Below, in pieces: positions 54,001 to 63,000 of a DNA stretch of 64,000 nucleotides. The stretch lies in the sequence record NC_028656.1, one strand, 5' to 3'. The stretch is from Enterobacteria phage VT2phi_272. A program made the position numbers. How positions within the stretch are numbered: position 1 is the first letter of the stretch; each line of letters begins with the position of its first letter.

Positions 54001-57000
54001 TGCCGAAGCAGCAGGGACTTTCTCTGAAAGAGCTTCAGAAGGGGGCCAGCAACGTAGCGGCGGACGCGATCAAGAATGGCGGTAATGCTCAGGCTGCGGT
54101 GGATGAATATTATGCTGCGACTGGTTCACAACCGCATCAACAGAAAATTCAGCAACAAAAACTTCAGCAACAGGTTATCAACTGGGCGGGAGATGATCCT
54201 GATAAGCTGTCATTTGCCAGAAATGTAGCGGCCCGTCAGCCTGAAATGCTGGAACCTCAGAATCAGAAATTGCTGGAGAACGGGTATGCGAATTTTCTCC
54301 GTATTCAAAAGGCCAGGGGGGAACAGGCCAGAGATGAAAGTGCTTCATCTGCATCTCAGTTTATCCGTGGACTGAAACAGAATTACGCCCAGTAATTCAC
54401 GATATTCCATTAATACCATTTCCTGATGCCCGGCCATTGTGCCGGGTTTTTTTATGGAGTCTGTATGGCCTATTCAGAGGAACAGCGTCCTGAGGCGCAA
54501 CTCGGTAACCAGAATCGTAACAGCCTGAACATTCAGCAACCCGGCGAAACTGACAGCTATGAAGCATTTTTCTCTGATCCGAATCGCTGGAAGGATAACA
54601 GTACGTCGTTCAGCCTGGGCGATGTATTGCCAACAATGGGTAAAGGTTTCGCCCAGTCCGTCCGGGGAACAGGGGAAATGGCCCGTGGACTCGGTGATGC
54701 GATGATTCAGAGCCCGGTAAAAACAGGGGCGCGTATTTTAAATGAGTTCAGCCGTATGGGGCTGCCGGGTGTCGCAACTGTGCAGGATATTTTTGCCGGT
54801 GGCAGCAGGGGGGCTGATGAGGTCATCGATACCCTGCCTGATGGCAAAAACGCGGTTACTGATACTGTCGGTAAAGGTCTGAAGGCAACCGGTAAGGCTG
54901 TCAGTGATGGTGCCAAAGCCACTGATGAATGGCTGACCGGTAAGATGTCGCCGGGTGCAGTTCGTGCGCTGAATACGCCGATGACCGAAGGCTATAATGA
55001 TTCTGCGGTCTGGGTGGCGAAGGGTGTAAACCTGATTGGTGCGCTTGTACCTGATATGGTTGCTGGCGGTGTGGCTAGAAAGGTGGGTGATGTCACACTG
55101 CGAAAAATGCTGACCGCCGGGCTGGAGAAAAAATACATCGCGGCAGGGATGCAGCCGGAAAGAGCCACGGCACTGGCAGCAGAAGCTGTCGATAAAAAAA
55201 TGCCGGATTTATTCCAGGCGGGCCTGATCACCCATTCCACTGTAAGTGCACAGGGGCAGAGTGCAATGGCGGCAGCAGATGCTGTTCTTAATGCTGATTA
55301 CTCTGAGCTGGCGCAGTCACCGAAATTTCAGCAGACGTTTTTGTCCATTGACGCCGACCCGCAGCACGCACAGCTTACTGATCGCCAGAAAATGGATCTG
55401 GCAAAAGAGCGTGTTGCCGATGAGGTGCGCGCGCAGCTGGCAACCGATCCTGAATTGCTGGCTGTGAATGCCATGGCGGCAAAACTGGGTGACGCACAAC
55501 TGTTTAATCTGGTGACACGAGGCACAGCGAAGACCGTTAAAAGCGGCATTGTCAGAAATGCCACGGAACAGGGGGCGATTAATGCGGCGCAGGGCGGCTA
55601 TTCACGCTATCAGGAAAACACGGCATTGCGTGAGACCGCCGGAATGGGTGTGTCACCGTGGGAGGGCGTGGCTGACGCAACGATCGAAGGTGCAGCCTTT
55701 GGTGCTGCGATGGGGGCTCCATTCGGTGCGGTTGCCGGATATCGTGGCAGACGTCAGGCCGCAGAAGAAACCGCCATGCGTGATGCTGAAACCGTGCAGC
55801 AGGACGACGCAGCCCCGCAACCAGAATCTGTTGATCCGGTGGCGCAGCAGCGTGAATCCATGCAGGGCATGAATCGCGAGCAGCTTCTGGAGCAGTATGC
55901 TGATGCGGATATGGCAACAGAGGGTGACGCATCCGCAGCTCATCGCCGGGAAGCTGCCAGCCAGTTGTTGAATGAACTGGACGAACAGACGAAGCGACAG
56001 GCTGTGATGAATGAGCTGAAGGCGAAGCCGCGTTCTGAACTGCTTGAGGAATACCGCAGACTCAGCCAGAAAGAGGGGCGCACCGAGACTGAAGAACAAC
56101 AGTTTCAGGCAATACGAGAAGTCATTCGCCCACAACAGGAAGTGACGCCGGAAGCACAGTCACAGCCTGAAAATGCGGAGGATGGTAACGGGAGCATTTA
56201 CCCGACGGTGCGGTTCCGGGACCCGAATGAAGTCCGCATTGAAATTAACGGGAATGGTGCGTCCAGACCAGCGGAACGCATTGAGAAGGTGCGCCCGGAC
56301 AACCGTTATTTCACGGATGAGAAAAGCGCCATGGGGAGTGATGTTTTCCGTAATGCCGCCGCCACCGGCCTGAAACCGTCCGTAGTGAAGAAAGGCGAGA
56401 ATCAGTATGCCGTTGAAATGGATAATCCTGCGTTCTCTGAAGATGTGGCAACGGAAACCATTAACACCCTGGCTGACGGAGAGCGTATTGCTGATGCTGA
56501 CCCGATGGAGCAGCCCGCGTTCATGCGTGACCCGCGATTCCGTGGTTTCACGGGGGATGATACGGAGGTACAGGCCCGCCTTGCCCGTGGCAACGCGCCG
56601 ACGGCAGAGGAGCTTGTACGTTCACAGATGGCTGAAGGTGATGCCGGTCCGACAGCACAGGAGTTAACTGAGCGTCCACGCCTGCCCGCTCCCGGCGATA
56701 TTCATCCCGGACAGGGATATCCGTTACCGGGAGAAGTGGCGCGTACGCCGGATGAAAATCAGGCCGGACGTGGTGGTCGTTTTACCACAACCGGTGAGGT
56801 TAAGGGCCAGAGTTTCCAGAAAGGACAAGCTCCGGCACCGGAAAACGCCGCTGGTCGCCAGGGGGAAACACTCGAGGGTGACATGGTTCGTCGTGGTCTG
56901 CCGTCACCGGATGCGCAGAACGCGACAGCACCGGTACGTGAAGGGCTACCGGCTCCTGACATTGCGCGTAATGTTCGTATGCCTCAGCCTGAATCACTTC

Positions 57001-60000: not shown

Positions 60001-63000
60001 ACCTTCTGCACAGAGGGCTCCAATTGCCCAAAGGGGAACATTCTTATCGCGGCTCTGCGGATAAAATACTCTATCCTGAAGATATTCGCAAGGGGCCGTA
60101 TTACTCCCGTACCAGCAGTCTGACACCGGAAGAGACAATTGCATCGCGTTTTGTGCGCCAGATGCAGGATAAATTCCAGGTGCTGAAAGCTGTTCAGGAG
60201 AATATCCGTAAAACTGGCGGCAAAGTGGACGACAGTAACAACGCTTATATGGCGGAAGAACTCTTCCACGGGAAGGCGGAAAACGACCTGAACGTGATGA
60301 AGGAGCGCTACGTTCAGCCACTGGCTAAATTACTGGCGGACTACAAAATTGCGCAGGCCGATCTGGATGAGTACCTCTACGCCCGTCACGCGCCGGAACG
60401 TAACGCGCATATCGCGAAAATCAACCCGAAAATGCCGGACGGCGGTTCGGGGATGACCAACGCGGAAGCGGCGGAAATCATGCAGCGTGTACGTAACAGT
60501 GGCAAACAGGCACAGTATGACCGTCTGGCAGGGATTATTGACGATATGCTGGCCCGTCGCCGTGAGCTTATCCGTGAGGCCGGACTTGAAGAGAACGGTG
60601 TGGTGGATGCCTGGCAGAACGCCTACCGTTACTACGTTCCCCTGAAAGGTCAGGATGTTGACGGTGTGGTGTCACTGCCCCGTACAGGTAAGGGCTTCAC
60701 CATCGGCGGACGTGAAAGCAGGCAAGCCATGGGGCGTGCATCCCGGGCACAGTCTCCGTCCACTCAGGCGATACAGGACCTGAGCGAATCGCTGATCCGC
60801 CATCGCAAAAACGAAGTGGGTAACGCCTTCCTGAAACTGGTGCAGGATAATCCCGACAAGGATTACTGGCAGGTATTCACCGATGACAGACCGGATACCA
60901 TGCGGACGATTGCAGAGCGCAAGGACCAGGAAACTGGTGAAACCATTCGCGAAGTTGTCGAACGCCCTGTACCGATGGCAATGATGGCAGACCGGTACTT
61001 CACCACCAAAAAGAACGGCAAAACGTACTACATCAAACTCCATGATCCGCGCCTGATGCGTGCGATGAAGAATATGGGACCGGAAACCAGCAATGCCTTT
61101 GTTCGTACGCTGGGGAAAGTTAACCGCTTCCTGGCAACGGTGAACACGTCGTATAACCCGGAATTCCTGGTCAGTAACTTCATCCGTGACGTGCAGACGG
61201 CGGTGATGAACCTGAAGGCGGAGCAGGGAAGGAGCGACGGTAAACTGAAAGGGCTGGATAACTTATCCGCCCTGGCTGTGGTGAAAGACAGCCGTTCTGC
61301 CATGTCAGCCGTATACGCCAGTCTGCGTGGTAAAACCCTCACGGGAAAAGGTGCACAGTGGCAGAAGGTGTGGAAAGAGTTTGTTGAGGACGGAGGTAAA
61401 ACCGGCTGGTTTAACATGGGTGACCTTGAAGGCCAGCAGAAGGAAATGGATCGCCTTGTATCGCTGGCGAAGGGAGGATGGAAAGGCCAGAGTATCGGTG
61501 CATGGAATTCGTTCCTTAACCTTGTCGAGGATGCCAACGGGGCGGTTGAAAACGCTCTGCGTCTTTCTGCCTATAAACACGCCCGTGATGCCGGTTTGTC
61601 ACGCCAGCAGGCGGCGTCTCTTGCCAAAAACATGACGGTGAACTTTAACCGTCGTGGTGAGCAGGGAGCGCTGATGAACTCGCTGTACATGTTCGCCAAC
61701 GCCAGCATTCAGGGGACCGCAAACCTGGTGAGAACGCTCGGACATCTTAATGGCGACGGGCCGTTACTGGAGCGCCTTCGCTGGAAGAATCTCAATGTAC
61801 CGCAGAAAATCGCGCTTGCAGCTGTGGGAGCGGGTTATCTGCTTGGCTCGCTTAACCGCAGTGTTGCGGGGGAGGATGATGACGGGGTTAACTGGTATGA
61901 CAAGGTGCCGTCTCATGTGAAAGAGCGTAACCTCGTCATTATGAAATCGGTGTTCGGGGGCAAGGCCGGAGAGTACTGGAGTATTCCTCTGCCTTACGGG
62001 TACAACGTTTTCTTCCTGCTTGGTCACACAGCCGAAGGGGGGGCAGCGGGCGACCTGACCGCTTCACGTGCTGCCGGTAATGTTGTTGGTGGTGTGCTTG
62101 GGGCATTCAGTCCTGTGGGCAGTGAAACGTCGGAAACACTGTCCGGGGCATTGCTGAAAAATGCAGCACCGACAATTCTGCGTCCGTTTGCGAATCTTGC
62201 CATGAACGAAAACTTCATGGGGGCGCAGATTTACCAGGAGAACATGCCGTTTGGTACACCAAAACCTGACAGCCAGCTGGGAAGACGTTCAACGCCAGAA
62301 GCGTACAAGGCGTTTGCATCCTGGCTGAATGCGTTCTCTGGTGGCAGCCAGTACCGTTCCGGTGCGGTGGATGTCACGCCGGAATCACTGAAATACTGGA
62401 TTGACTATATCTCCGGAGGGACAGGGCGCTTCATTTCCAAAACCACGGATGCGGCGGTGAAATCGCTGAACGGTATTGATATACCGGAGCAGCAGGTGCC
62501 CTTCCTGGGGAAAATTTCAGGTGAGGTGATGCCGTATGCTGACCAGCAGAAGATGTACGACCGGATGACAGAGGTTGCGCAGTATCACGCAGAGCTGAAG
62601 AGTCTGACCGGTGCAGAAAGAACGGCGTTCATTGACGAGAACAACGGAAAATTGTCGATGAACGGGCTTATGCAGGATACCCGGAAGAGACTGAAGGATT
62701 TGCGTAAACAGCGTGATGCCATTTACGCCGACAGTACTCTCAGTCTGGCGCAACAGTCGGCGATGGTGAAATCGGTTGAGCGGGATATGAAAATTGCCGT
62801 GGATCGGTTTAACCGCGAGTACAACAAAAAAGTGGGAGTGGAGTAAAGAACATGCCCCGTACGGAAGTGCGGGGCATGCTTAACGGGGTGTGTACATAAA
62901 TGGGTACTGATATGACGATTATTTCGCCACTTTCTGTATTTAAATCAATGACTTAATACTTATATTCATTATATCCATTTAACTAAGAGGACAATGCGGC

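Follow-up and report, generated by a model that had tools for sequence, protein, structure and literature searches.

The giant late protein of Shiga toxin phage VT2phi_272 as a probable polyvalent ejection protein with a shared chassis and lineage-specific cargo

We analysed a 64,000-nucleotide stretch (the window) of Enterobacteria phage VT2phi_272 (NC_028656.1) that carries a gene of 8,382 nt encoding a protein of 2,793 residues. Our results suggest that this giant is probably a phage-type polyvalent protein, in which a chassis of three conserved blocks bears lineage-specific cargo, and that it serves as the large internal ejection protein of this Shiga toxin (Stx) podophage. In the short-tailed Stx phages, through which Shiga toxin genes spread among E. 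coli, this gene fills an eighth of the genome (~13% of the 63.6 kb of PA2, as first estimated). If injected ahead of the DNA, its product would be the first phage activity met by a new host cell, and as such could affect the range of strains open to lysogeny, and hence the origins of new Shiga-toxin-producing strains.

Polyvalent proteins were defined by Iyer, Burroughs, Anand, de Souza and Aravind (2017; PMC5512222), who also named the LPD domains. The giant resembles members of this class such as P1 DarB and DdrB in joining many unrelated domains in one giant late-gene polypeptide, with zincins as hubs. Four Pfam families scored above their cut-offs (E 1e-17 to 8e-48), namely LPD5 (residues 1051-1200, nt 57615-58064, E 6.5e-45, with a confident AlphaFold2 model for 1041-1172), LPD1 (1361-1440), MuF_C (1750-1839) and LPD38 (2476-2681). 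Among them, LPD38 is restricted to phage-type polyvalent proteins and LPD5 is listed as possibly enzymatic (Iyer et al., PMC5512222). Several unrelated domains of the polyvalent repertoire are found in one very large polypeptide, encoded by a virion-operon gene beside attR, which bears out the polyvalent architecture put forward in the original prediction, a reading of the sequence alone. P1 DarB-type proteins differ in carrying methylase and helicase anti-restriction modules; the Stx giant lacks these, yet relatives on the same chassis have them.

With the first 460 residues as query, an exhaustive HMMER search retrieved ~60 other giants of 2,000-4,600 aa. Three blocks are common to these proteins: residues ~170-460, ~1470-1665, and 1887-2790 or its core. 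The cargo of the other giants includes ddrB-ParB, Sno-type helicases, methyltransferases, ART-PolyVal, PBECR5 and LPD39, and the C-terminal block is preserved in full even at 33% identity, while the domains before it vary. The virion RNA polymerase (vRNAP) domain was present in 0 of 13 related giants. At the level of protein families, PHROG 616 (unknown function) matches the giant end to end, and its C-terminal 950 residues are common to other giant-protein PHROG families, one of them 'DarB-like' (PHROG 10089; LPD38 region only).

HExxH occurs exactly twice in the giant, as HEWFH at 1284 and HEIIH at 1551, where 0.035 occurrences would be expected from composition. Both motifs had been predicted to be of zincin type, and the alignments below agree with this; we assign them to two different zincin families, the first a cargo domain of CLCA_X type (MPT1) and the second a zincin-type chassis domain (MPT2). 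Zincin metallopeptidases (MPTases) are a hub domain of polyvalent proteins, proposed to process the polyprotein, and one of their variants combines a His ending strand 2 with an Asp at the third residue past HExxH, while another has HExxxH (PMC5512222). MPT1 corresponds to the former, and the MPT2 family to the latter.

The motifs of MPT1 are AHYE (1262-1265), HEWFH (1284-1288, nt 58314-58328), D1291 and a Glu helix, EMAARAFE (1375-1382). CLCA_X (NCBIfam NF041907), a mostly phage- and plasmid-borne zincin family that is related to the CLCA protease domain and in which a conserved Asp follows HExxH (Lenart et al., 2013; PMC3650047), covers residues 1182-1437 (model positions 3-245 of 250, E 9e-44), with a score of 149.8 bits against a curated cut-off of 260 that makes MPT1 a relative and not a curated member. 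The likeness to the CLCA_X protein Bbp10 of Bordetella phage BPP-1 lies in this near-full-model alignment of MPT1 plus LPD1 and in HExxH and Asp, whereas the Stx-phage domain is embedded in a 2,793-aa protein. A homologue search with residues 1201-1700 returned 1,143 proteins (E up to 0.001), 75 of which were aligned; among these, H1284, E1285, H1288, R1379 and E1382 are invariant, with H1263 (of AHYE), D1291 and E1375 conserved in at least 90%. Both motifs (HExxH and the Glu) fall on predicted helices, and the domain fits a zincin fold, with an N-terminal helix, a three-stranded sheet and an active-site helix. MPT1 matches the common phage-type MPTase of Iyer et al., and Pfam LPD1 its Glu-helix half.

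In MPT2, the motif HEIIHH (1551-1556, nt 59115-59132) is followed by the helix AGEFLAHMAE (1605-1614), which is conserved among giants as AEEvxAHxAE. The motif columns hold H in 48, E in 51 and H in 51 of 51 giants; most relatives read HEILAHH (HExxxH), and the Stx protein is one residue shorter. When trimmed cores were compared, the MPT2 and MPT1 profiles aligned in register (E 0.0055). No Pfam peptidase model matched either HExxH, even with segments scanned separately, and PDB sequence searches (with a single sequence and with a 75-sequence profile) gave no meaningful relative of the giant protein. The structural matches of the HExxH domains are zincins, including Pro-Pro endopeptidases (PPEP), MtfA, lethal factor, thermolysin and botulinum light chains. 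Peptide-bond cleavage by MPT1 and MPT2 is a predicted activity.

One or both zincins could be injected to cleave host proteins (e.g. defence or regulatory ones) and have no part in self-processing. Lethal factor, the botulinum light chains and PPEP are among the best structural matches, and MPT1, as variable cargo that also occurs in stand-alone proteins, is what one would expect of an effector module. Yet CLCA, the namesake of MPT1's relatives, is a self-cleaving protease, and MPT2 is a constant of the chassis while the cargo varies, a better fit to a housekeeping role such as processing. This effector role is among the possibilities listed by Iyer et al. (PMC5512222); we find it rather unlikely.

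Two further observations concern these domains. The LPD5-zincin-LPD1 module is abundant in metagenomes as stand-alone proteins of 400-870 aa (P0032, P0069, P0097 and many others), often with a second HExxH ~230 residues downstream, and is also seen on megabase-size bacterial contigs, e.g. of Edwardsiella piscicida. Besides, the LPD1 Glu-helix region (aa 1364-1416, 58554-58712) has a weak echo, seen as secondary phmmer matches, at aa 1876-1930 (~60090-60254), where the C-terminal block begins just past MuF_C, near an AEELFHG that is nearly invariant in the block alignment; the echo may be a remnant of another zincin half-domain.

Virion packaging, one of the checks suggested by the original prediction, has been published for an orthologue. 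An April 2026 bioRxiv preprint (10.64898/2026.04.10.717836) found 'gp47' of phage phi24B in purified virions and noted its LPD5, LPD1, LPD38 and MuF-C domains. This protein (vb_24B_48, ADN68472, Stx2 phage vB_EcoP_24B) is syntenic with the giant, following the same 421-aa gene, and is 97.1% identical to it over 2,793 residues, with identical HExxH motifs; there is no material difference between the two, as the 2,811 aa of the preprint correspond to the stop-to-stop open reading frame (ORF). In the supplementary table of the preprint, gp47 has 10,962 spectral counts, second to the capsid protein (17,998). Counts per residue are ~3.9 for the giant and ~3.1 for the 12-copy portal. Crude arithmetic on the preprint's counts, which could be off several-fold, suggests ~10 copies of the giant per virion; for gp50 of phage N4, 4 +/- 1 copies have been reported.

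In the preprint, gp47 is not seen in the cryo-EM density, and its authors propose that the protein is packed in the capsid and ejected from it (10.64898/2026.04.10.717836). This bears on whether the giant could be an external structural component, i.e. a tail fibre, a tape-measure-like protein or another architectural part of the tail, as its place at the end of the virion operon, after the fibre genes, might suggest. The phi24B reconstruction explains portal, adaptors, nozzle, fibres and needle without the giant protein, and its domain content is enzymatic. Pfam and PHROGs gave no fibre or tape-measure families, and no fibre-like repeats were found in the gene, for which Tandem Repeats Finder returned a single trivial 25-bp match, in agreement with what was described at first. 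A purely structural tail part, which the original prediction had set against its own reading, is contradicted by these data and can be virtually dismissed.

The authors of the preprint assigned a metallopeptidase to MuF-C and suggested peptidoglycan digestion (10.64898/2026.04.10.717836). The assignment is unsupported by domain definitions, in which MuF-C is an RNase-type domain of the BECR fold (PBECR); the copy in phage Mu itself is degenerate and predicted to be inactive (Iyer et al., 2017; PMC5512222). In the giant, Pfam MuF_C scored 64.2 bits against a cut-off of 27.6, and His1752 and Ser1816 are conserved in at least 80% of 33 non-redundant MuF_C homologues. These two residues fit the pattern of an active PBECR domain when they are assigned to its structural elements from the published description. 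Accordingly, we relabel MuF_C as a predicted RNase instead of a metallopeptidase.

The preprint's proposal amounts to a structural conduit, a trans-periplasmic tube that the protein builds or extends, whose metallopeptidase degrades peptidoglycan to let it reach the inner membrane, and which delivers no cytoplasmic effectors. It accounts for a virion protein that the density does not show and that was put forward for ejection, and for the membrane-type segments in the N-terminal domain (NTD). It also has a precedent in T7 gp16, a large podovirus ejection protein that carries a cell-wall hydrolase. The giant is like gp16 in that the latter is the largest of the internal proteins expelled before the DNA, but no sequence or domain similarity between them was found, and Pfam detects no lysozyme or transglycosylase domain in the giant. 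Moreover, the domain named as a peptidase is of RNase type, the HExxH domains match zincins, with no muramidase, transglycosylase or other wall hydrolase among the matches listed, and the same chassis bears DNA- and RNA-directed cytoplasmic enzymes in relatives. In N4, the tunnel is made of gp51 and gp52, not of gp50. We therefore consider such a conduit very unlikely.

The closest parallel to the giant is N4 gp50, the vRNAP (3,500 aa; PDB 9PNR, PMC13434306), which is likewise giant, Cys-free, packed in the capsid and encoded by the last virion-operon gene. Two 2026 papers place gp50 last among three ejection proteins and show that its NTD inserts into nanodiscs. They divide its C-terminal domain (CTD) into C1, a small domain with HExxH, and C2, which is helical, 110 kDa in size and without structural homologue, and propose that gp50 crosses the tail like beads on a string. 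Two small proteins, gp51 and gp52, form the tunnel, and the N4 authors treat gp50 as the T7 gp16 analogue. The two giants share their layout: homologous NTDs are followed by a low-complexity linker, and a small HExxH domain precedes a very large helical C-terminal domain, which in the Stx protein, as in C2, is without structural homologues. They differ in the centre, where the Stx giant has LPD5-zincin-LPD1 in place of the polymerase, plus the MuF_C RNase-type domain; no vRNAP Pfam family matches the giant, while four match gp50.

A profile of the NTD, compared with the single N4 sequence, aligned to gp50 72-445 over 329 columns (hhalign probability 96%, E 1.5e-9) with a score of 79.0, against at most 26.5 for controls (reversed and 16 block-shuffled N4 sequences). 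HMMER gave a per-target E of 5e-9 for the same pair. The hydrophobic segment at 181-205 aligns to the predicted membrane-spanning helices of N4 (224-278), the ones that enter nanodiscs, and the glycine zippers also align. These comparisons firmly establish homology between the NTDs. The linker at 461-889, the long Pro/Gln/Arg-rich segment of the original prediction, is rich in E (11.7%), A (11.4%), R (9.8%), P (8.4%), Q (7.7%) and G (7.7%), and is the positional counterpart of the low-complexity linker 907-1006 of gp50. MPT2 aligned in register with the N4-family C1 profile (E 2.3e-4, probability 44%), whose HExxH is invariant in 9/9 relatives, and probably corresponds to C1. A phmmer search of N4 gp50 against the related giants found nothing, and a viral-contig scan for relatives of the N4 NTD found N4 itself only.

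Several observations weigh against carrying the N4 parallel, and self-processing with it, too far. Neither direct BLASTP of the giant against gp50 nor the comparison of the C-terminal block with C2 (E 0.31) was significant, and Foldseek against the PDB gave no significant match (best E 0.29). Since the capsid proteins are dissimilar and the portals match only marginally (E 0.025), we do not claim a shared virion module with N4, and the analogy to N4 is backed by demonstrated homology in part only. The chief objection is that the N4 vRNAP is packaged and purified unprocessed despite its HExxH domain; therefore the chassis zincin may cut nothing, or have a non-proteolytic role. Finally, the gp47 counts of phi24B peak in the first listed gel band and tail off across many later bands (preprint supplementary table), a pattern that processing might explain, but no less so smearing or degradation, as the sample was six months old.

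These data would suit zincin-like domains that are non-catalytic and serve metal-dependent folding, packaging or regulation in one uncut chain. Recombinant gp50 shows no degradation either, the HExxH-bearing CTD of N4 is needed for encapsidation and allosterically autoinhibits the polymerase, and the phi24B gp47 counts are highest in what appears to be the highest-mass band, judged by the peaks of portal, spike and capsid. Against this, H, E, H and a downstream Glu are almost invariant in very divergent giants, and the general-base Glu is kept in 51/51, beyond the need of metal binding alone. We hold this alternative to be unlikely, and favour zincins that process the chain in which they stand.

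The absence of cysteines is another trait common to the giants. The protein has none, where ~22 would be expected from other late proteins (P ~3e-10), the 60 related giants have 5 in 175,956 residues, and N4 gp50 has 0 in 3,500. We infer that this is a signature of crossing the tail channel and the oxidising periplasm unfolded.

Taken as a polyvalent ejection protein, the giant would act as follows. Several copies would be packed inside the T=9 head, virion presence coming from phi24B proteomics and the inside location from the missing cryo-EM density. After receptor binding, the loosely folded, Cys-free chain would thread the tail and a trans-envelope channel of smaller ejection proteins, as in N4, and the NTD, by its homology to that of N4, would lodge in the inner membrane. 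From this anchor, the long low-complexity tether (~430 residues) would trail the cargo into the cytoplasm, where the C-terminal parts would refold and the zincins could cut linkers, releasing or activating cargo, by analogy with the self-cleavage of CLCA and with the processing proposed by Iyer et al. (2017). The RNase-type and LPD5/zincin cargo might then act on host or phage RNA or protein in the first minutes of infection. Virion presence was observed in the orthologue and the domain homologies in the giant itself; ejection, membrane anchoring, cleavage, enzymatic activities and an anti-defence role are what we infer.

It is possible, though we would put it at somewhat below even chances, that the Stx giant and the N4 vRNAP are two versions of one ancient podovirus delivery chassis, and that the Stx phages have an N4-type ejectosome with four upstream proteins. 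Such a chassis would combine an NTD that anchors it in the membrane and a tether with a small HExxH domain and a huge C-terminal domain of helices. Its cargo would be a T7-like polymerase in Schitoviridae and a zincin plus an RNase in Stx phages; elsewhere it would be methylase/helicase, ParB nuclease or ADP-ribosyltransferase. If true, cargo swapping on the chassis would be a general podovirus way to change what is injected first. The NTD homology also lets N4 ejectosome experiments (nanodiscs, bubblegrams, full versus emptied virions) transfer to a medically important temperate phage, and the chassis-and-cargo view offers a rational route for domain-by-domain dissection.

The four proteins encoded upstream (218, 148, 83 and 421 aa) and the giant are the products of five consecutive genes, all of them Cys-free. 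In phi24B virion preparations the upstream four have 523, 129, 13 and 1,634 spectral counts respectively (preprint), the last comparable to the 2,226 of the portal. A virion-structural PHROG is matched by the 218-aa protein, and a glycine zipper is present in that of 83 aa. No sequence similarity of the upstream proteins to N4 proteins was found, the 421-aa protein against N4 gp51 being not significant. By analogy, the five genes look like an ejectosome cluster comparable to gp52-gp51-gp50 of N4, and from synteny the upstream four could be co-ejected partners. In the preprint, the 421-aa protein is labelled 'Transcription factor?' and was apparently among four dismissed as contaminants on annotation grounds, and what it calls a 'bacteriocin homologue' is apparently the 83-aa protein with the glycine zipper.

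The gene itself was confirmed as an uninterrupted plus-strand ORF with its stop at 62846, which counts 2,806 codons from the first ATG (54426) and 2,793 from ATG 54465. We prefer 54465 as the better start because GGAG lies 6-10 nt 5' of it, because ATG 54426 sits within a hairpin and T-run (54428-54447), and because the 13 residues added by the upstream ATG contain both cysteines of an otherwise Cys-free protein. ATG 54465 is also the start annotated in phage PA2. As originally described, the gene closes the late/virion operon, being its final gene, ~120 nt from attR. Coordinates of all features are listed in Table 1.

Table 1. Features of the giant gene and its surroundings in the window (nucleotide positions) and in the protein (residues)
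Feature	Residues	Position	Strand	Basis or remark
Complete giant gene (308 kDa predicted)	1-2793	54465..62846, stop included	+	ORF, GGAG, homologue identity
N-terminal domain	1-460	54465..55844	+	N4 vRNAP NTD homology; N-terminal in ~60 giants of 2,000-4,600 aa
Hydrophobic segment in N-terminal domain	181-205	55005-55079	+	Hydropathy
Glycine zipper in N-terminal domain	409-426	55689-55742	+	Weak Gly-zipper Pfam matches
Low-complexity E/A/R/P/Q/G-rich linker	461-889	55845..57131	+	Composition
Conserved island in linker	678-812	56496-56900	+	Common to several distant giants (P0247, P0248, P0250, P0260, P0314)
LPD5 module, cargo	890-1200	57132..58064	+	Conserved module starts at ~aa 890 in homologues
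First zincin domain MPT1, CLCA_X type, cargo	1201-1440	58065..58784	+	Pfam LPD1 is its C-terminal part
Second zincin-type domain MPT2, chassis	1470-1665	58872..59459	+	Kept in 50 related giants; confident model
MuF_C/PBECR domain, cargo	1715-1845	59607..59999	+	Pfam MuF_C aa 1750-1839, E 1.3e-17; predicted metal-independent endoRNase
C-terminal chassis block, ~900 residues, mostly alpha-helical	1887-2793	60123..62843	+	
LPD38 in C-terminal block	2476-2681	61890-62507	+	Pfam
Hydrophobic segment in C-terminal block	2445-2467			
G+C-rich hairpin then T-run, terminator-like		54428..54447	+	7 pairs (6 G-C), then TTTTTTT; between 421-aa gene and giant gene
Four upstream genes (218, 148, 83, 421 aa)		51753..54395	+	Synteny; tentative co-ejected partners

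The giant protein is 100% identical to AKI85979 of phage PA2, and the gene is found in 184 Stx phage records at >=93% identity over >=80% of its length, nearly all of which label the product 'hypothetical protein'. The original prediction held its function in Stx phages to be uncharacterised; the domains and virion presence of the orthologue were published in April 2026. The polyvalent class and virion presence are thus already in the phi24B preprint. New here are the N4-NTD homology, the division into chassis and cargo, the placing of the two HExxH motifs in two zincin families, the corrected MuF-C label and the cysteine-free sequence, the preprint making no mention of the two HExxH domains, the N4 homology or the lack of Cys.

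A few minor features remain. Pfam scans of six unassigned segments of the protein gave sub-threshold noise only (Gly-zipper, EF-hand, DEK_C, Peptidase_M76 at E 0.2, WXG100). The conserved island in the linker (aa 678-812) could be a docking or cleavage region. Late transcription of Stx phages is Q-antiterminated, and the hairpin before the gene could be a partial terminator that sets the dosage of the giant protein, or a terminator active only without Q antitermination. Minus-strand ORFs of 100-170 aa are numerous within the gene, and the GenBank annotation of phi24B has three small ones inside its own giant gene (3192-3515, 5667-6047 and 6398-6769 of the phi24B stretch compared); such antisense ORFs are most likely spurious, arising from gene length and a strong GC skew.

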